64,000 nt of DNA from Micavibrio sp. (lineage in GTDB: Bacteria > Pseudomonadota > Alphaproteobacteria > UBA2400): the NCBI GenBank assembly GCA_040376705.1, contig JBEIQE010000005.1:64156-128155 (forward strand), read 5' to 3'. Numbering within the stretch: position 1 is the first letter of the stretch; each line of letters begins with the position of its first letter. Below the pieces are notes generated by a model. The model was not told where the DNA came from, did not search any database, and was given only the letters and a program-made list of their open reading frames with translations. Positions 37,706 through 49,885 of this stretch are shown here, in pieces. The position numbers and the translations under genes are program-made.

Positions 37706-38299
37706 CTAAGCTGCGCGAAACCAGAAAACCACGTAATCAAAATTATCCGGGCAATCAACCGTTGCTCCATTAATCGGCGGATAGAGGAACTGGTGGTTTG
37801 AATTACCGTCTACCGATATTTGAACGTAGATCATATCCGTGCCATTCTTGGCCAATCCGGCAAACCGCCTGATGATCTGCTTGCACTCGGCCCCACTAAC
37901 CCGACTTTGCTTGCTTGGGATGGACGGCCCATTCATCGTCACATTAAAAACAGGGCAGTTGGAATAACAGGACAAGGCCGTGCGCAGAGAGACCCCAACA
38001 GGCAGCAAAGCTTCCTGATTACTGGCAATCAGCTGTGCGCCGGGCAAAAGGCCGGCACGCACTGAGGTCTGAGTTACATTCACACCAGTACTTGGTGTGG
38101 TTGGGTAGCTCTCACGCGGGTAAAGTCCGCGCGACTGCGCCGCAAAAAGAATGGCATTGGCAACAGTCGTAACGCGGTTCTGTTCGCGCACTTGAGCTGC
38201 CGCCAACCAGATACCGCCAATAACAAGACCAAGAATGCCAAGGATAATGGCTGACTCGATAAGTGAAAATGCACTACGGCTCTGAAAATTGAGGTACAT
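37706..38299 (-). CDS. prepilin-type (type IV pilin/pseudopilin-like) protein, Ala at -1
   Basis: N-terminus MYLNFQSRSA|FSLIESAIILGILGLVIGGIW: class-III signal/N-methylation motif with Glu+5. Start taken at Met24 of the track ORF (37706..38368). AT-rich. Confidence 0.6.
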   Translation of the reverse strand: MYLNFQSRSAFSLIESAIILGILGLVIGGIWLAAAQVREQNRVTTVANAILFAAQSRGLYPRESYPTTPSTGVNVTQTSVRAGLLPGAQLIASNQEALLPVGVSLRTALSCYSNCPVFNVTMNGPSIPSKQSRVSGAECKQIIRRFAGLAKNGTDMIYVQISVDGNSNHQFLYPPINGATVDCPDNFDYVVFWFRAA

Positions 38300-38538
38300 A
38301 CCACGACGATATACATAGGTTTTTCTATTACAAATCAATTTACTGGGCAGATTATGCTTTATGCACAAGACGCATCATTTTTGATCTCCAGACCCACCTA
38401 CTTACTTTGAAAGCGTCTTGGCGAACACAGGAAAGAGGTAGCTTTACGCCAAGCCATGCAGGCTTACGCAGGGTGGATTATGAAAATGCAGCAGGGTCAG
38501 GAAATCGTTACAAACGGGTGGCTAGTTGATTGACCAGT

Positions 38539-39141
38539 TTAGCGTGGGAAAATCAGCGTTAATGCCCCATTTAAGTGACGATCGCAAATGAGATAATATG
38601 GGTCATATCCATTTTGCCGTACACCATTGCGTACATCGTCTCCGCTTATAACGTCACCATGACCATTAACAACGGTTATATAACCTTTAAACTGGCTAAG
38701 GTAAGCGTAACAATCTTCTGGTTGGATTCTTCCGTCGGCGCTGCCAAAGCTAATAGAAAAACTACCGTTCACTTCGGAAGGCCACCCACCAGAGGCATAG
38801 TACCTAATAAAGAGAGCTCCGCCATCTGGCGTTTCTAAGCCGCGCCACTGCATAGTTGGAATAAGATAAGGATAATTAATTACACCCTTGGCCATAAGAT
38901 AATTATGCAGGACTATGTTACCGGAGCTGACTGGCTCGACATGACGAAAATCGTTTTGTAATGTCGAAAGAGCCAGTGAGACGCGCCTGATCGTATCATT
39001 CCGGATAACCCTCGACTGAGCTGCCGCGGCAGCGGTCCAAATCCCACCAATCACCAACCCTACAACACCTAGTACGATGGCGGCTTCAACCAGACTGAAG
39101 CCGCGGCCCAAGCTGATTTGATTTTTGGTAAAATAGTACAT
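38539..39141 (-). CDS. prepilin-type (type IV pilin/pseudopilin-like) protein
   Basis: MYYFTKNQISLGRG|FSLVEAAIVLGVVGLVIGGIW: canonical G-1, F+1, E+5 prepilin motif. Paralog of the downstream gene. AT-rich. Confidence 0.65.
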   Translation of the reverse strand: MYYFTKNQISLGRGFSLVEAAIVLGVVGLVIGGIWTAAAAAQSRVIRNDTIRRVSLALSTLQNDFRHVEPVSSGNIVLHNYLMAKGVINYPYLIPTMQWRGLETPDGGALFIRYYASGGWPSEVNGSFSISFGSADGRIQPEDCYAYLSQFKGYITVVNGHGDVISGDDVRNGVRQNGYDPYYLICDRHLNGALTLIFPR

Positions 39142-39487: not shown

Positions 39488-42244
39488 ATGCTCAGCGCCC
39501 TCTCCCGCCTCGTTTTAGGGAGCTCAACCGCCCGCAATCTCAAGCGCTACGAGAAGAATGTTGCCAAGATCAACGCGCTCGAACCCGCGATGATCGCCCT
39601 GTCGGACGAACAGCTGAAAGCCAAGACCGCCGAGTTCCGCGACCGCCTCGCCAAAGGCGCTACGGTTGACGACCTGCTGATCGAAGCTTTTGCGGTTGTG
39701 CGTGAAGCCGCCAAACGCACCATCGGTCAGCGCCACTTTGATGTGCAGCTCATGGGCGGTATGGCGCTGAACGACCGTTCGATTGCCGAAATGCGCACCG
39801 GCGAAGGTAAAACCCTCGTAGCAACCTTGGCGGTTTACCTCAACGCACTGCCGGGCAAGGGCGTGCATGTGGTTACCGTAAACGACTACCTCGCACGTCG
39901 CGACAGTAGCTGGATGAGCCAGATCTACGGCTTCCTTGGCCTCACCACCGGTGTGATTGTGCACGGCCTTGATGATACGCAGCGCCGCAATGCTTATGCC
40001 TGCGATATTACCTACGGTACCAATAACGAATTCGGGTTTGATTACCTGCGCGATAACATGAAGTATGGCCTGAATGAGATGGTCATGCGCGGCTTCCACT
40101 TTGCGGTGGTCGACGAAGTTGACTCGATCCTGGTTGACGAAGCCCGCACCCCGCTCATCATCTCCGGCCCCTCCACCGACTCATCCGATCTCTACCAGAA
40201 GATCGATGTGCTGATGAAAAAGCTGCAGCCCGAAGATTACGATAAGGAAGAAAAAACCAAGTCAGTCGTGCTGACCGAGCTGGGTACCGAGCGTATGGAA
40301 GAATGGCTGCGCGAAGCCGGCCTGCTCGAAATTGGCGGTCTTTATGATGTGCAGAACGTAGCGCTGGTCCACCATGTAAACGCTGCGCTTAAGGCGCATA
40401 AGCTGTTTACCAGCAATGTTGATTATCTGGTGAAGGACAACAAGGTCATCATCATCGATGAGTTTACCGGCCGCATGATGGAGGGCCGCCGTTATTCAGA
40501 CGGTCTGCATCAGGCGCTTGAAGCCAAAGAGCATGTGGCCATTCAGCGCGAAAACCAGACTCTCGCGAGCATCACCTTCCAGAACTACTTCCGCCTCTAC
40601 CCCAAGCTCGCAGGTATGACCGGTACGGCGATGACCGAAAAGCAGGAATTCGGCGAGATTTACGGCCTTGATGTAACCGTACTGCCCACCAACGTACCGG
40701 TTGCCCGTATAGACCATGAAGATGCGATCTATCTCAACCAGAAGGGCAAGTATCAGGCAATTATCCAGCTCATTAAAGAGTGCGCCGAGCGCCATCAGCC
40801 GGTGCTGGTCGGTACCGTTTCGATTGAAAAATCAGAGCTGCTCTCAGCCGCCCTCACCAAGGCGGGCGTGAAGCATAATGTGCTCAACGCCAAGTTCCAC
40901 GAGACCGAAGCCGAGATCGTCGCGCAGGCTGGCCGTCCGGGTGCAATTACCATCGCCACCAATATGGCAGGCCGCGGTACCGATATTCAGCTCGGTGGTA
41001 ACATCGAGATGCGCATCAAGAGCGAGCTCAAGGACATGCCGGAAGGCCCCGCACGTGATGATGCGATTGCTACCATTAAAACCGAAGTTATGGCCGCACG
41101 CGAGCTGGTACGCAATGTAGGTGGTCTGTTTGTTATTGGCACCGAGCGCCATGAATCACGCCGTATCGATAACCAGCTACGTGGCCGTTCGGGCCGTCAG
41201 GGCGACCCCGGTGCCTCAAAGTTCTTCCTCGCGCTTGATGACGACCTGATGCGCATTTTCGGCACCAACCGTTACGCTGGCATGATGGAAAAGATGGGCA
41301 TGACCGAAGACATGCCGGTGCACGACCGCTGGATTTCAAAAGCGCTCGAGAAAGCACAGCAGAAGGTTGAAGAGCGCAACTTCGATATTCGCAAAAACCT
41401 GCTGAAGTTCGATAACGTAATGAACGATCAGCGCAAGGTCATTTATGAGCAGCGCCGTGAGCTGATGGACAGCAAGGATGTATCCGACGTTATTCAGGAT
41501 ATGCGCCATGAAGTGATTGCCGATGCTGTGCGCGCGGCCATTCCCGAAGGGGCTTATGCCGAGCATTGGAACATCGAAGGTCTGACCGCCGATGCCAAGC
41601 GCGTGCTGGGTCTTGACCTGCCGATTGCCGCCTGGGCCGCTGAAGAAGGCATTGCCGAAATCGAAATCCGCGATCGCCTGACCAAGGAAGCTGACGAGCG
41701 TTATGCCGCCAAGGTGGCCAAGTATACGCCCGACCTCATGCGTCATGCCGAGAAAAACGTATTGCTGCAGCTGCTGGATCAGGGCTGGAAAGAGCATCTT
41801 CTGGGCCTCGACCATCTGCGTCAGGGCATCGGCCTGCGTTCGATGGGTCAGCGCGACCCGCTGAACGAATACAAGCGCGAAGCGTTTGAACTGTTCGGGG
41901 CACTGCTGGATAACCTGCGTGAGCAGGTAACACAGACCCTCATGCGCCTCGAGATTCGCGTGGCCACACCTGAGATGATGATGCCCCAGGGTCCGCGCCC
42001 GCAGGATATGCAGATGATACACCCCAGTGCCGAGCCGATGCTGGTCGGGGCCGAGGCCGAAGTGCCCAGCGCCATGCCCGCTGGCATGAGCCGCCAGGGC
42101 TCGGTGCCGATGCCCGCGCCCAAGCCGCTGCGCAAAATGGAAGTTGATCTGCGCGACCCCACCACCTGGGGCGATACCCCGCGCAATAACGTTTGCCCCT
42201 GCGGTTCGGGCAAGAAGTACAAACACTGCCACGGCAAGGTTTAA
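39488..42244 (+). CDS. secA: preprotein translocase ATPase SecA
   Basis: 918 aa; Walker [18 protein letters not shown]-like [20 protein letters not shown]-terminal zinc-binding [14 protein letters not shown]. Confidence 0.97.
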
Positions 42245-42328: not shown

Positions 42329-43204
42329 ATGAGCCAGTCCCACATCAGCATCAACTGTGCTGCAGCGCCTTATAACCCGCTGCCGGTTATTGATGCTGCC
42401 TTTGCACAAGTGGCCCGCATCCGCGCCAACAGCACCGCGCCCATATTTATTCTCGCGGGCGAACAGCATAACGACCAGATCGAAACATTCCTGCCCTATG
42501 TGGCAGCCCATCGCGCTGGTTTACTGGGTGGCACTACAATTCCTCACCAGCTTGCGACCCTGCAATTTGCCCTCGAGCGCCCGCATGATACGCTGCAGAA
42601 GGATCTGACCAAGTTTAAGAAAGACCTTCCCGGTCTGATAAAGCCGCACGATAGGCCATCGGTTCAGCTCGCCCGCATCCTGAGTTTTTATGGCAATGGC
42701 GCTGGCAACCCACAGGATGCCTCACGCGTTATGCTCACGGCTTTTACAGATAACAACGTGCCACTGATCGCTGTCGATGCCAGTATCAAATGGGGCCGGG
42801 TCTTCCCGTTCCTTGACCCCAAGGATGAGCTGACGCGCCAGTTCATGCCTGACGGAGAACCAAGCCACCACCTCGGATTCATGGCGGGCGAACCCCGCGC
42901 AATGCATAGCCGCAACCGGCTTATGGCGCATTTGCTGCAGCAACAGGCGAGCACCCCCAACGCGCTGATCTGGATGAACTGCGGGTATGAGCACCTGTTT
43001 GACGATGCCAAGCACTCAGTGTCCGGCCTCGCAGGCCTGCTAAATGGTCATGTTCTGGTAATTGCCAATACGGCGCATCTGCCCGCCAGTCAGCCAGCAA
43101 CTGACGCATTAATCGTTTTCAGTGATCTGGCTGACACCAGGAATAGTCAAACTGCAACGGCGCATGTTTTGCGCCACCTCAGGCAGGCAACGCCCTCACC
43201 TTAA
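42329..43204 (+). CDS. hypothetical protein X1 (291 aa); possible TIKI/TraB/ChaN/GumN-superfamily fold
   Basis: Two GxxH motifs in the two halves (FILAGEQHND and WMNCGYEHL), reminiscent of the pseudo-twofold TIKI/TraB/EreA/ChaN superfamily. Assignment by eye only. Confidence 0.45.
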   Translation: MSQSHISINCAAAPYNPLPVIDAAFAQVARIRANSTAPIFILAGEQHNDQIETFLPYVAAHRAGLLGGTTIPHQLATLQFALERPHDTLQKDLTKFKKDLPGLIKPHDRPSVQLARILSFYGNGAGNPQDASRVMLTAFTDNNVPLIAVDASIKWGRVFPFLDPKDELTRQFMPDGEPSHHLGFMAGEPRAMHSRNRLMAHLLQQQASTPNALIWMNCGYEHLFDDAKHSVSGLAGLLNGHVLVIANTAHLPASQPATDALIVFSDLADTRNSQTATAHVLRHLRQATPSP

Positions 43205-43262: not shown

Positions 43263-43856
43263 ATGCTTAACCGCTTCAACACCCTTGGCACTCGCGCCGC
43301 AGTACGCAGCGTTCAAAGCATCATGCCGCCGGCTCTGCCCGAGATTCAAGACTGGTTACGCAGCAGTGGCGTGCACAAGGCCACACTATTCGGCAGCTCG
43401 CTCTATGCCACCCAGCTGGGCCACCCTAACCGGATTAACGATCACGATCTGATTATTGGCCAGACCGATCTGCGTTGGTGGAAGCTGCGCGAGCGCCTGG
43501 CCCGCACCGCACGTATGGAATACTCAACCGACCACCCGCTGCAGCCCAAGCGGCTTTTCTATACCCTGCCCAGCGGCGTTAAAACCGATGTCTGCCTTTC
43601 ATACGCACCGCGCAGCCCGCGCTTCATGGCCGAGCATGCGCTGTTTGGCATTTCTGCCATTGCGGCAGATGTGTTCACCAAGCAGGTCTGGGTACGGCCT
43701 GAGTTTGAACAGCATATGCGTGAGCATGTCATCCGCCCGCTCAACACTGACGATACAGGCCTTATTCTCCGCTACGCCGATAAAATGTCTGACAAGTTCC
43801 CGGATTTCAGGGTTGATCTGGGCTCGGCCTACCGGCCCAAAAACCATTATGCCTGA
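43263..43856 (+). CDS. Pol-beta-superfamily nucleotidyltransferase-like protein P1 (intact hG[GS]..DhD motif)
   Basis: ..ATLFGSSLYATQLGHPNRINDHDLIIG.. matches the minimal NTase signature (cf. FGSxxxG..SDhDhhh). Downstream ..GVKTDVCLS.. as candidate third acidic residue. Start at Met48 of the track ORF (43122..43856). Confidence 0.5.
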   Translation: MLNRFNTLGTRAAVRSVQSIMPPALPEIQDWLRSSGVHKATLFGSSLYATQLGHPNRINDHDLIIGQTDLRWWKLRERLARTARMEYSTDHPLQPKRLFYTLPSGVKTDVCLSYAPRSPRFMAEHALFGISAIAADVFTKQVWVRPEFEQHMREHVIRPLNTDDTGLILRYADKMSDKFPDFRVDLGSAYRPKNHYA

Positions 43857-43926: not shown

Positions 43927-44349
43927 ATGGGTGAGGCAGTTTCACAGGTCAGTCCACAATTCTCGGACCTCGTACGCCGGCGCGAGCTGAGCCTGGTCGC
44001 GCCAACGCGCCATGCCGAAGTCGCCGAGCAGCTTGATGACAGCATCATGCGCCCGCTGCTGGATGAGCAGCTACGCGAATGTATTTTCAACTTCGCACAA
44101 CTCGCCCAGCCTACCGGCACACGGATTGTCAGTGATAACGGGCTCGACCCTGTATTGGCCTATGCGCTCTTCACCGACATACCGGTTTTGCCGCAAGACC
44201 GGGCCGAAGCCGAAGAGCTGGCCTGCGATGAATTCCGCCGCCTCGCCGCACTGGATGATGAAAGCATTCCCGGTGCAGCGCTTACTTTATGCCCGAATGG
44301 CGAGGTTACCCTGCGCCCTGTCATGCAAATGAGGATGATTATACGATGA
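43927..44349 (+). CDS. hypothetical protein X2 (140 aa)
   Basis: Acidic small protein. Stop overlaps start of next gene (ATGA). Confidence 0.4.
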   Translation: MGEAVSQVSPQFSDLVRRRELSLVAPTRHAEVAEQLDDSIMRPLLDEQLRECIFNFAQLAQPTGTRIVSDNGLDPVLAYALFTDIPVLPQDRAEAEELACDEFRRLAALDDESIPGAALTLCPNGEVTLRPVMQMRMIIR

Positions 44350-44864: not shown

Positions 44865-44944
44865 TTTTATTGCTCAAAAAGATGTTGACGGGCAAATTTA
44901 AACCATACTAAGGTTCCTGCCATACAAATTTGCAGGAGCTTCTT

Positions 44945-45433
44945 ATGCAGCGCACAAACGACTCACCCGCGATCACCTCCGCCACCGCTCAGGCCTTCAA
45001 ATTCCTGAGCCAGCTTGGCCTGCGTGAACCGGTGGTCTTTGGCGAAGACGTGGACGCCAGCGCTACCAACAAGCGCAGCGGTAAAGTGCACCTGCAGGTG
45101 GTTGCCGCCCTGCCCGAAGGCCAGAACCCGGTGGCCAGCTGGTTGCGCCTGACGCAAAAGCTGAGCGCCGCCACCAGGCTCAACTCGCGCCGCGCCCCCG
45201 GCGAGATCATGCCACGCGAAGTGATGTTCTATAACGACCAGAGCCAGTTTGGCGTGCTCATCGGCTCGACCCATCTGCACGTGCAGGTAAGTGAGAAGCC
45301 GGTTGCTGCCATGGATATTCTGGCACGCCAGCCGGTCGAGCAGCAGGTAGCCGTGCATACAGCGCAAGGCAGCCTTGCACGTACCGAAACGCAGGCACGC
45401 AAAGACCTGCGCATGCAGCTGGAACTCGCATAA
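44945..45433 (+). CDS. hypothetical protein X3 (163 aa)
   Basis: AGGAG Shine-Dalgarno about 7 nt upstream of ATG 44945. Contains ..VVFGEDVDASATNKRSGKVHLQVV.. weakly resembling the same G[SD]..h.hhh segment. Confidence 0.4.
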   Translation: MQRTNDSPAITSATAQAFKFLSQLGLREPVVFGEDVDASATNKRSGKVHLQVVAALPEGQNPVASWLRLTQKLSAATRLNSRRAPGEIMPREVMFYNDQSQFGVLIGSTHLHVQVSEKPVAAMDILARQPVEQQVAVHTAQGSLARTETQARKDLRMQLELA

Positions 45434-46712: not shown

Positions 46713-47387
46713 CTAGCGATTACGGTTGTTGCCGAAAGTCGGGCTGCGGAAAGTAAATTCGCTGCGGCGGAAGTTCTGATCGGTCTTGATGTCCGACAGC
46801 ATGACCTCAGTAGTCACGCCCTGCGCATCAAGCACGCGCCAGCCCAGAATCTGCATTGGCACTTCCTGCATCACCAGCGTCATTTCGCCAGCCTGCGGGT
46901 CTTTGGCCGAGCGCACGGTTACTTCCATTTGCGTAGGATTGGGGTGGCTGACCTTGGCCACCGTCACATCATCGCCACTGAAGTTGAGGTTACGCTTCAA
47001 GAGGAAGCCCGCCAGCGTATCGTCAATACCAGTCTGGCTCTGCTGCTTCATCGCATCATCCCACTGATAGATGTTGGTGCCATCCGCAATGATGAAATCC
47101 TTGCTCGGGGCATCGTACTGAATGTGTACGCGGCCCGGGCGCCAGAGCTTGAAATTGCCGGTTACCTCGCCCACGCTGCCGTCAAGCTGGGTGGCGCGCT
47201 GGGTAAAGCGTGCAGCCAAAGGCTTGAGGCCATTAAAGTAATCTTCGATGCGCTTGAGGTCGCGCTGGTCCTGCTCCGAAATGGTAATCGGCGCGGGTGC
47301 GTCATCCACAGGGGTTGCCGCCTGTGCAACAGGCAGGGCCGAAAAGACGAGAAGGGCTACAAGAGCAGGGCGAAGGAGCATGTTCAT
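46713..47387 (-). CDS. lolA: outer-membrane lipoprotein carrier protein LolA
   Basis: Signal peptide MNMLLRPALVALLVFSALPVAQA; ..ARFTQRATQLDGSVGEVTGNFKLWRPGRVHIQYD..DGTNIYQWD.. parallels E. coli LolA FTQ/LW/DG..LW.Y pattern; 224 aa. Confidence 0.75.
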   Translation of the reverse strand: MNMLLRPALVALLVFSALPVAQAATPVDDAPAPITISEQDQRDLKRIEDYFNGLKPLAARFTQRATQLDGSVGEVTGNFKLWRPGRVHIQYDAPSKDFIIADGTNIYQWDDAMKQQSQTGIDDTLAGFLLKRNLNFSGDDVTVAKVSHPNPTQMEVTVRSAKDPQAGEMTLVMQEVPMQILGWRVLDAQGVTTEVMLSDIKTDQNFRRSEFTFRSPTFGNNRNR

Positions 47388-48400: not shown

Positions 48401-49885
48401 TTAGACGAGTGCGGGCTGTGCCTTAGGCGCGGTAAGTGCCTTGTTCAGGGCAATCATCTCGGCCTCGGTCTTGGCGATAACCACCGCACGGTAGCTGATA
48501 TGGTTGCCACCTGTGGGCACATCGACTACCGCCGGCACAATACCGGTATAACCGCTTTCAGCACCACGATAGAGGTTCTTGCCAAGGTGTTCCGCCACAA
48601 CTTCAAACGCATCGGTGCAGCCTTCAGGCAACGGCAGCTTGCAGCCCTTCGAGAAGGCATGCGGACGCTGGCCCAGATGCTGCTCGGCCTTATGCGCCAG
48701 GCCCAGCAGCGGCGATGCGCCTGAAAGGCGGGTATTGATGTCGTTCATATAAGCGCTCACCGTGCCGTCGGCATTCTCAACCGCAATGGCGTTCACGCTG
48801 ATATAACCGCGGTAGCCATCCTTGTGCATACGCTGCATCAGCTTGTCGGCTGCAATTTCAGTTGGCGTAACTACACGCTCATCTGCTGCCTGCGGCAAGC
48901 GGCTGCCCATATAATGGCCGTTCTGGGTTGAGAGCACGGTGTTTTCAACATGGGTTACGCCCTTGTCACCGATAATCGCTTTCACGCCCACATCGTCGAT
49001 CTTGCCAATCACACCGGGCAGTTTGCCCACATCCACTTCCATCACAATCGGCATGAAGCGCTGAATACCTTTAAACGGATTCTGCGGATCAATCTTGGCA
49101 GTGTTATCGGCAAAGAAACCGCAATCCTGATAGGCCTTGGCAATTTCGCCAAAGGCTTCCATCAGCGAATCTGGGGTTGCATCAGGCTTGCTGATTACGC
49201 CCTGACCGCCCGAAAGCGAGGTGGGCTTGATCCAGACTTTGGTGGTCTCGGGATCGATGCCCTTCTTGAGCATCATGGCGCGGAACTTTCCAGCCTTGGC
49301 GAAAATATCCTTCGGGTCTTCAATCACAACACCGGGGGGCGCGTCAAAGCCCTCTTCAACCGACGTCTGGTGCAGGTATTCCTTACCCACAAACTTGAGG
49401 AAGGTTGAGTTGCTCATCAGCACGCTGGCACCAGTTTTTTCAGCCAGGGCTTCAACCTCTTCGGTTACATACGAGTTGACGATAACCTTACCCTTCAGCA
49501 GGTTCTGGGTTTCAGGCGTATGTGCGGTTGATAGCAGCGCTGTGATAATCGACGCCTCAGGATAGCGGCGGCCCTCAGCAACTGGCTCAATCGCCTTAAG
49601 CGTGCCGCCCTCGGCCAGATAGGTTGAGACATATTGCTGCTGCGCGCGGGTGAGCGGGAAGTGCAGCGCCACGCTTTGCGGGCCAGACATGGCCAGCGTA
49701 TAAGCGGTTGAAACACCTTCAAGGTCGTCAGTCGCGGTCATGCGCCAGGTTGCGCCCTTGGGGTCAACCACCAGCGAATTGATGAAGACAGCATCAGCGG
49801 GCTGCAGGCCCAGATGCTCGGCATAGCTCGCAAAGCCATTAGCCAGATTACCGCGGGTCCATTTGAATTGATGAGGTGTGGTCAT
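48401..49885 (-). CDS. ATP-grasp-fold carboxylate-amine ligase (amidoligase), 494 aa
   Basis: ..KVWIKPTSLSGGQGVISKP.. matches ATP-grasp phosphate-binding loop (hKP..GSGGxGV). C-terminal ..AYMNDINTRLSGASP.. resembles the E/NxN catalytic loop. Paired with AstE/AspA-family gene as in known amidoligase/peptidase associations. Confidence 0.55.
   Translation of the reverse strand: MTTPHQFKWTRGNLANGFASYAEHLGLQPADAVFINSLVVDPKGATWRMTATDDLEGVSTAYTLAMSGPQSVALHFPLTRAQQQYVSTYLAEGGTLKAIEPVAEGRRYPEASIITALLSTAHTPETQNLLKGKVIVNSYVTEEVEALAEKTGASVLMSNSTFLKFVGKEYLHQTSVEEGFDAPPGVVIEDPKDIFAKAGKFRAMMLKKGIDPETTKVWIKPTSLSGGQGVISKPDATPDSLMEAFGEIAKAYQDCGFFADNTAKIDPQNPFKGIQRFMPIVMEVDVGKLPGVIGKIDDVGVKAIIGDKGVTHVENTVLSTQNGHYMGSRLPQAADERVVTPTEIAADKLMQRMHKDGYRGYISVNAIAVENADGTVSAYMNDINTRLSGASPLLGLAHKAEQHLGQRPHAFSKGCKLPLPEGCTDAFEVVAEHLGKNLYRGAESGYTGIVPAVVDVPTGGNHISYRAVVIAKTEAEMIALNKALTAPKAQPALV

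Follow-up and report, generated by a model that had tools for sequence, protein, structure and literature searches.

A tandem array of short class-II nucleotidyltransferase paralogs between secA and lolA in Micavibrio sp., with one copy keeping the candidate catalytic carboxylates

We analysed a 64,000-nucleotide stretch of a Micavibrio sp. contig (JBEIQE010000005.1, positions 64,156 to 128,155 of the forward strand; hereafter the window), in which a gene array between secA and lolA includes four genes for short nucleotidyltransferase (NTase)-like proteins, P1 to P4. A sequence-only reading had proposed that just one of the four paralogs keeps a catalytic-looking NTase motif, and this proved to be the case: P1 is the sole copy in the window with all three candidate catalytic carboxylates, and P2, P3 and P4 all lack the DxD dyad. 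Judged by their substitution rates, P2 to P4 are maintained under purifying selection. The four proteins form a short (about 190 residues) branch of the class-II NTases, with a PolyA_pol head fold that comprises the head and part of the neck. We propose, at somewhat less than an even chance, that P1 is catalytic, that P2 to P4 are its non-catalytic partners, and that each array carries one live site.

Active-site residues of the four paralogs

P1 is encoded by an open reading frame (ORF) running from ATG to TGA at 43263..43856 on the plus strand (197 residues), the second gene of the array. Both segments that had been singled out in it were present. The first, identified from the sequence as motif A, reads LF-G44-S45-S46-LYATQLGHPNRIN-D60-H-D62-LII (43392..43457, plus strand; the end in full is N59-D60-H61-D62-L-I-I) and leads from the end of strand β1 through a helix into strand β2, which carries the DxD; HMMER aligned it to GGGVRDLLLGKKPKDFDV of E. 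coli poly(A) polymerase (PAP). The second, G105-VKT-D109-VCLS (43575..43601, plus strand), places D109, the candidate third carboxylate, in the middle of a β strand. In the AlphaFold2 (AF2) model of P1, strands span residues 40-43, 60-66 and 107-113 and a helix spans residues 45-52; D109, invariant among P1 orthologs, lies on the last of these strands. The only P1 ortholog recovered by a word-indexed search of 5.8 billion proteins was the metagenomic protein P0002, which is 58% identical, occupies the syntenic position in lineage L001, and keeps the three Asp residues (DDFDLIV; KVDAAC). All three are also kept in the P1 relatives P0029 (47% identity) and P0034 (36%).

The remaining copies depart from this pattern to different degrees (shared positions are given in P4 numbering). 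P4 (46134..46709, plus strand, 191 residues), a pseudo-NTase, keeps the motif-A sequence G-S-x-L-R-D-A-D-N-G and departs from the conserved family positions only at D45S, D47S, D96N and D116P. The resulting triad Ser45/Ser47/Asn96 was the same in 12 of the 13 P4-clade sequences, the exception being P0025 with T/S/R, and S45, S47 and N96 were invariant down to 40% identity in the ten P4 orthologs (40-82% identity, all metagenomic) that the word-indexed search returned. P3 (45540..46127, plus strand, 195 residues), likewise a pseudo-NTase and compared through an alignment of seven orthologs, keeps G..LRDADN with R35 and D36, as well as D96, G118, D140 and T147; its dyad is replaced, by FNY in the window copy. 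P2 (44346..44864, plus strand, 172 residues) is the most degenerate paralog. Local alignment gives F..Y at its dyad, R35/D36, G118 and D140 are also missing, and almost all conserved positions are lost, its residue states being read from the orthologs P2b and P2_L016; P2 orthologs occur in lineages L001, L016 and L005. The motif-B Asp is Leu in P1 and Pro in P4, P3 and P2.

The dyad was lost in every P2, P3 and P4 ortholog, and the alignment confirmed that P1 orthologs retain the acidic residues and that the other three orthogroups have lost them. The description of the substitutions as aromatic or aliphatic fits in part, as P2 and P3 orthologs carry aromatic (F/Y-type) or polar residues at the dyad, but P4 carries the Ser/Ser/Asn triad. 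Similarly, the loss of acidic residues holds for the dyad, but most P3 orthologs retain the third Asp. A complementary pattern was seen at motif A: P1 and P5, an intact paralog from sister lineages that is described below, have changed Arg35 to Tyr, and the dyad-less P3 and P4 keep Arg35-Asp36. The alignment suggests that the change from Arg35 to Tyr in P1 and P5 was probably convergent and independent.

An exhaustive HMMER search of 1.84 billion proteins with a family profile (E<=1e-3) gave 133 relatives (cluster representatives), mostly of 180-220 residues. The family consensus, GGALRDxDNGxPxKDxDI, is that of class-II motif A, and most relatives carry GGALRDxDNGxPxKDxD[IV]. In a 128-sequence family alignment, the glycines G31 and G32 were present in 124 and 100 sequences and R35 and D36 in 113 each. 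The dyad residues D45 and D47 were Asp in 104 and 102 (about 81%), indicating that the P1 motif is not coincidental. The third position was more variable (D in 65, N in 39, Q in 13, E in 5); the motif-B Asp, D116, was found in 74, G118 in 113, D140 in 118 and T147 in 102. The first Asp is absent from 24 sequences, and 20 of these fall in the P2, P3 and P4 clades of the secA-lolA array. The check proposed with the earlier reading had asked whether conservation of the acidic residues is limited to the P1 orthogroup; P5 and the wider family have them as well.

A neighbour-joining tree of the 128 sequences, which is rough and carries no support values, grouped P1 with intact relatives (P0029, P0034, P0054 and others) and placed P4 as sister to an intact group that includes P5 and P0028. 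P3 and P2 grouped with intact relatives such as P0027 and P0032, both of which have an intact DxD and are the nearest outgroup relatives of P3. Pairwise identity among P1 to P4 is 14-23%, and relationships were therefore traced by profile-profile comparison of orthogroup against orthogroup with hhalign. This linked P1 to P4 (probability 97%, E 1e-10, 158 columns), P4 to P3 (97%, E 5e-11) and P3 to P2 (96.5%, E 8e-10). Direct hhalign comparisons of P1 with P3 and of P1 with P2 were not significant, and paralogy is thus set through the chain P1-P4-P3-P2. The profile comparisons show that P1, P2, P3 and P4 are true, ancient tandem paralogs.

Fold and relatives of the array proteins

AF2 models were obtained for P1 from a 20-sequence alignment (predicted local distance difference test score, pLDDT, 78.8; predicted template modelling score, pTM, 0.75) and for P4 from the 128-sequence alignment (pLDDT 94.8, pTM 0.90). 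When the P1 model was searched against the PDB with Foldseek, the best 24 matches, and 33 of the top 40, were class-II CCA-, CC- or A-adding enzymes or E. coli PAP (E 2e-7 to 9e-4; template modelling score normalised to the query, TMq, 0.46-0.60), and the other seven of the top 40 were FAM46. With the P4 model the top 46 matches (TMq up to 0.63) were without exception class-II NTases; one FAM46 entry came next, and more distant pol-beta-fold enzymes after it. Both models thus have a pol-beta-type head fold that is nearest to CCA-adding enzymes and PAP. For both models the score normalised to the target (TMt) was about 0.3, and about 30% of the targets was covered; this low value, despite a TMq of 0.5-0.63, indicates that the match comprises only the head and the start of the neck. 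G-S or G-G lies between strand 1 and the helix in the models, DxD or SxS opens strand 2, and D109 or N96 is placed mid-strand, which in these predicted structures is the canonical arrangement.

Sequence profiles pointed in the same direction. The enlarged family profile matched E. coli PAP (E 1.2e-6), the B. stearothermophilus CCA-adding enzyme (E 2.9e-6) and the human CCA enzyme (1e-5) among PDB sequences, and these alignments put motif A and the RRDFTxNAIAMD motif-B region in register. A weak match of the profile to the N-terminal 75 residues of PDB 4yf1 (Listeria Lmo0812, 187 residues; E 1.5e-4) was also recorded; 4yf1 was absent among the top 50 Foldseek matches listed. The earlier description of a minimal NTase was therefore roughly right, but the proteins are not of the MNT/NTP_transf_2 type, their nearest folds being the class-II CCA/PAP enzymes.

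Class-II tRNA NTases and PcnB (PF01743) share the head fold and the start of the neck with P1 to P4, their motif A (GGxxRDxxxGxxxxDxD) and motif B (..RxD-[FI]-G-[LI]-S-x-I-A, aligned with RRDFTxNAxA) align with the family profile, and their carboxylates lie on strands equivalent to those of the P1 and P4 models. The class-II motif A is divided among the copies in the window, with P1 keeping G-S and DxD without R-D, P3 and P4 keeping R-D without DxD, and P2 keeping neither, and at the third carboxylate position P1 has D109, P4 has Asn, and P3 mostly has Asp. The motif-B region aligns (..GLSAIAMD to RRDFTMNAIAMD), but the RRD element followed by FTxNA is not complete, as no window copy has the Asp. 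The three carboxylates of class-II enzymes serve as Mg2+ ligands, an Asp and an Arg in the neck act as the template for the base, and the tail holds the tRNA at its elbow (PMC3925840). Unlike these enzymes, the array copies end after about 190 residues, without a body or tail domain to anchor the tRNA elbow, no neck EDxxR base-templating motif could be seen in their alignment, and three of the four lack DxD. No window protein matched PF01743 at its gathering threshold of 23 bits; P5 and intact relatives gave sub-threshold matches of 12-18.6 bits. Searches of the window proteins against Pfam, NCBIfam, PHROG, PADLOC and PDB sequences gave no useful match, and weak matches to GHMP_kinases_C, TraT and others were dismissed as noise.

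P1 to P4 are best filed with a short phage and bacterial NTase family, that of phrog_1614, whose members have the same size and fold as the array copies and belong to the same wider HMMER family; examples are Mesorhizobium phage Lo5R7ANS gp33 and proteins of Caulobacter phage Cd1 and of Ralstonia and Pectobacterium Autographiviridae. The window proteins did not match phrog_1614 at E<=1, and the link is transitive: the window profile finds P0068, P0115 and others, which match phrog_1614 at 1e-13 to 1e-23. The single-domain architecture of about 180-220 residues is shared, as seen from the protein lengths and from full-length structural matches in BFVD (Caulobacter phage Cd1, Ralstonia phage P-PSG-11 and others; TMt about 0.6-0.67). 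A tblastn search detected intact relatives in 47 records of phages, most of them Autographiviridae of Pseudomonas, Ralstonia, Caulobacter and Mesorhizobium; there the genes are flanked by those for primase/helicase and for DNA polymerase I and bear the annotation nucleotidyltransferase, tRNA nucleotidyltransferase or poly(A) polymerase. The phage enzymes are solitary and keep DxD, and their third position is often N, Q or E; the window genes, unlike them, are chromosomal, tandemly multiplied and mostly without the dyad. The function of the phage NTases is a matter of annotation only (PMC7693777).

Other systems resemble the array in part. The CC-adding and A-adding pair of Aquifex and the multiple tRNA NTases of Acanthamoeba and Dictyostelium are cases in which differentiated paralogs of one NTase family co-exist in a genome (PMC3925840); these paralogs are all active and full length, unlike the present array, in which three of four copies lack the metal ligands and none has tRNA-binding domains. 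Toxin-antitoxin NTases of the MNT/HEPN and DUF1814 (MenT/AbiEii) types are, like the array proteins, small members of the pol-beta superfamily with hG[GS]...DxD that are encoded in small operons. Nevertheless, no PF01909 (NTP_transf_2), other Pfam or PADLOC match was found in the array, the neighbours U0, X1 and X2 match no family, HEPN included, and KNTase/MNT-type folds appear only far down the structural match lists of P1 and P4, where CCA/PAP enzymes are nearest. An MNT/HEPN-type toxin-antitoxin system was rejected because of this lack of a family or partner match. The literature searched contained no description of a tandem short-NTase array with three conserved dead copies and an interchangeable live copy.

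Array composition, selection and genomic setting

The array in the window has the order U0-P1-X1-P2-X2-P3-P4-lolA, and its composition varies among related lineages. L001 has U0-P1-PAP2_3-X1-P2-X2-P3-P4-lolA, L016/L015 have U0-X1-P2-X2-P3-P4-P5-lolA, L013/L014 have secA-U0-X2-P3-P4-P5-lolA, L005, which is cut at its 5' end, has P2-X2-P3-P4-lolA, and L009 has X1-PAP2_3-X2-P4-lolA. P5, the further intact paralog, follows P4 in L013, L014 and L016, all of which are without P1. Its motif is full (LFGGCLYDS(D/E)..(V)NDYDLLV and GTLIDLNIT), and it is nearly canonical, differing from the family consensus essentially in R35Y alone; its closest relative in the array is P4 (hhalign 99.3%, E 2.5e-20). 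Exactly one intact copy was present in all four of the fully visible arrays, and P1 and P5 never occurred together.

Ratios of nonsynonymous to synonymous substitution rates (dN/dS) were calculated by the method of Nei and Gojobori between L013 and L014. They were 0.12 for P3, 0.18 for P4 and 0.15 for P5, compared with 0.21 for U0, 0.33 for X2 and 0.045 for lolA; pairs between the window and L001, which are more saturated, gave 0.11-0.36. Overall, the copies without the dyad had a dN/dS of 0.12-0.22 and a dN about 10-25 times that of lolA, and their ORFs were intact in at least eight lineages, down to 40% identity, with many positions invariant. Loss of the dyad thus goes together with purifying selection and a conserved fold (pLDDT 94.8 for the P4 model), as expected of maintained pseudoenzymes. 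The earlier suggestion that the inactivated copies are pseudoenzymes stands in so far as they are maintained (dN/dS 0.12-0.18) with conserved replacement residues.

L013 and L014 are 97-100% identical at the nucleotide level in secA, U0, X2, P5 and lolA, but only 74-86% identical over precisely the P3 and P4 orthologs (L013:2260-3460), and dS is 0.44 and 0.64 at P3/P4 compared with 0.07-0.11 in the flanking genes. This drop points to import of a divergent allele, and P3/P4 looks like a recombination or polymorphism hot spot in these alignments.

In a further lineage, L019, whose SecA is 76% identical to that of the window, P0028 is the only family member; it occupies the P4 position, adjoins lolA and has an intact motif (GGALRDADNDRPIRDYDV). 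This suggests that the ancestral state was a single live enzyme next to lolA. A 135-residue ORF in L019 was considered as an X2 homolog and rejected, as it is not X2-like. Two intact relatives are solitary and located in unrelated chromosomal contexts: P0027 of the P3-like subfamily (L020:6350-7006), between trpC and trpD and near lexA, and P0029 of the P1-like subfamily, which adjoins a Na/Ca exchanger gene. These indicate that the P3-like and P1-like subfamilies predate the array. The context of P0035 was uninformative. Neither the P4 profile nor a 494-residue neighbour protein described below found a relative among the GTDB representative genomes, a scan of JGI metagenomes added no contig to the known set, and two scans of viral contigs gave no close relatives.

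In the window, the seven array genes from U0 to P4 are co-directional on the plus strand and packed between secA (39488..42244, plus strand; assigned by ORF and synteny), the conserved upstream boundary, and the convergent lolA (46713..47387, minus strand; TIGR00547, E 3e-20), the conserved downstream boundary, which adjoins the last NTase copy in every locus compared. Intergenic gaps range from -4 to 106 nucleotides; the P2 start overlaps the X1 stop by 4 nucleotides, P4 starts 6 nucleotides past P3, and its end is 3 nucleotides from lolA. The GC content and the GC content at third codon positions (GC3) of the array genes match those of secA and lolA, and the neighbourhood is of housekeeping type (a PpiC/SurA-like isomerase, two pilin-like genes, secA, lolA, an AstE-like gene and ftsK). 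The locus is a native chromosomal, operon-like array. Native composition, a fixed position in the core genome and the lack of mobility genes in the stretches examined led us to reject recent insertion of a prophage or island. Scans of the window with Rfam and for tRNAs gave no match.

Three array genes encode other proteins. U0 (42329..43204, plus strand, 291 residues) is the conserved first gene of the array, with orthologs of 36-51% identity directly after secA in L013, L014, L001 and L016. It matched no family and no PDB sequence, and a U0 profile also found nothing in the PDB. Its invariant residues across orthologs (AGE.., PH, VDAS, RN.L, CG..HL) are reminiscent of the GxxH...E...R[ND]...GxxH pattern of the Tiki/TraB/ChaN/erythromycin-esterase superfamily. 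X1 (43927..44349, plus strand, 140 residues), a conserved member, has orthologs in L001, L016 and L009 at 35-62% identity and no match in Pfam, NCBIfam, PHROG or PADLOC. X2 (44945..45433, plus strand, 162 residues; an alternative ORF start is TTG at 44930) is likewise conserved, with orthologs in seven lineages. Its hhalign comparisons with P3 and P2 gave a probability of 18-21%, restricted to the N-terminal helix and strand; X2 is possibly a truncated, degenerate fifth copy.

A gene for a PAP2_3 (PF14378) membrane phosphatase-like protein of 397-400 residues, absent from the window, is inserted into the array of two lineages: in L001 it follows P1 (L001:1810-3003), and in L009 it follows X1 (L009:769-1971). 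Upstream of X1 in L009, the segment L009:1-345 looks non-coding and contains a repeat element that translates as IPAKAGI/PAFAGMT on both strands. Upstream of secA, the window encodes two paralogous proteins of 200-220 residues (37706-38368 and 38539-39141, both on the minus strand), each with a type-IV-pilin-like N-terminus (GFSLVEAAIVLGVVGLVIGGIW); in L019 the space between secA and the lone NTase gene holds pilin-like homologs, and these genes thus travel with the region. On the other side, the 494-residue protein (48401-49885, minus strand) is 64-88% identical across related contigs and adjoins the AstE/aspartoacylase-like gene; it gave no NCBIfam match, and its homologs have no Pfam family on record.

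Possible roles of the catalytic and non-catalytic copies

In the reading that we tentatively favour, P1 would be the single catalytic subunit, transferring a nucleoside monophosphate from a nucleoside triphosphate to a 3'-OH, most plausibly at an RNA 3' end. P2 to P4, and perhaps X2, would assist it as paralogs without catalysis of their own, either by binding substrate or nucleotide or by controlling P1, and the assembly would probably be a hetero-oligomer. P5 would take the catalytic role in sister lineages, the system would need exactly one live active site, and the array would have grown from a single ancestral enzyme next to lolA. We infer that P1 is catalytically active, with P2 to P4 serving it as scaffolds, substrate-binding subunits or regulators. 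Functional dependence is favoured by the mutual exclusivity of P1 and P5, the rule of one intact copy and the complementary residues, and the conservation of the dead copies under purifying selection suits non-catalytic partners still at work better than it suits genes in decay.

Several observations weigh against this reading. P1 had been called close to canonical, which is true of its DxD and third Asp but not of the rest: its G-S to Asp spacing, at 14 residues, exceeds the family consensus by two, with an insertion of two residues before DxD, and other strongly conserved positions are changed (R35Y, D36A, D140H and T147R in P4 numbering). Together with the lack of the motif-B Asp of the class-II RRD, this divergence suggests that P1 may be an inefficient enzyme or not specific for RNA. 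In L009 no intact copy lies within the 2.6 kb visible upstream, and a dead copy may therefore work without a live neighbour. A scan for promoters and terminators was uninformative, the signal being no different from that of shuffled sequence, and the comparative paper that notes the phage NTase genes states their role as unknown (PMC7693777).

The dead copies could instead be decoy- or immunity-like, either antitoxin-like buffers of the active NTase or decoys and specificity determinants, for example against the short NTases of phages. This reading, which we consider unlikely, is kept alive by the P3/P4 hot spot between L013 and L014, which is typical of conflict loci, and by the intact relatives common in Autographiviridae phages beside replication genes; the array also differs in composition between lineages. 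Nonetheless, no array member matched PADLOC, no close relatives were present in viral contigs, the fixed core-genome position, native GC and GC3 and absence of mobility genes in the stretches examined do not fit it, and a dN/dS well below 1 gives no sign of positive selection at the gene level. Independent neofunctionalisation appears about as unlikely. Here P3 and P4 would be stand-alone nucleotide- or RNA-binding proteins, or enzymes of another chemistry that employs Ser45/Ser47/Asn96, and would work independently of P1 and lie next to it through tandem duplication alone. L009, with its P4 and no visible intact neighbour, keeps this reading alive; moreover, the motif A of P3 and P4 (G-x-x-L-R-D-A-D-N-G) is nearly perfect and accompanied by G118, D125, Y137, D140 and T147, and the replacement residues of P4 are both polar and conserved across nearly its whole clade. 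The mutual exclusivity of P1 and P5, with one intact copy in each of the four fully visible arrays, argues for dependence, however, and the start and stop codons are tightly coupled.

It is improbable that no copy, P1 included, is a working NTase and that the array consists of structural or binding proteins derived from the NTase fold. Of the ten or so most conserved family positions, four are indeed lost in P1, which has also gained the two-residue insertion in the motif-A loop, and the motif-B Asp is missing in every window copy. Yet the three carboxylates are kept in P1 orthologs down to 36% identity and in the nearly canonical P5 while being freely lost in sister paralogs, which argues for selection specifically for the carboxylates. 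That the dead copies are decaying duplicates on the way to becoming pseudogenes would agree with their evolving much faster than lolA and with the degeneracy of P2; this is essentially refuted, simple decay being excluded by the selection data (a dN/dS of 0.12-0.22), as well as by ORFs intact across at least eight lineages with many invariant positions and by the confidently modelled fold of P4.

A more specific arrangement, which we regard as speculative and rather doubtful, is a split class-II NTase. P1 or P5 would give the metal-binding carboxylates and P3/P4, with their Arg-Asp, the nucleotide or substrate binding, in a hetero-oligomer with pseudoenzyme subunits; P3/P4 would also set specificity as a polymorphic module open to exchange, and this would account for the recombination hot spot. 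If true, such an enzyme would be a design without a described counterpart among CCA/PAP-type enzymes, and a first handle on the role of the short phage 'tRNA nucleotidyltransferases'. Short head-only relatives of CCA enzymes are widespread in bacteria and podophages and are as a rule annotated as 'tRNA nucleotidyltransferase', and to our knowledge none has been characterised.

The locus is a natural experiment in which one ancestral enzyme appears to have given rise to an array in which exactly one copy keeps the metal ligands, and the rest persist as pseudoenzymes that are conserved yet evolve fast and are polymorphic locally. If the copies cooperate, it would be a bacterial case of a catalytic subunit that depends on pseudoenzyme paralogs, and would offer a tractable route to the substrate of the family. 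If they are independent, it would still show clearly how an active site can be lost repeatedly, in particular lineages, in genes that stay under purifying selection.

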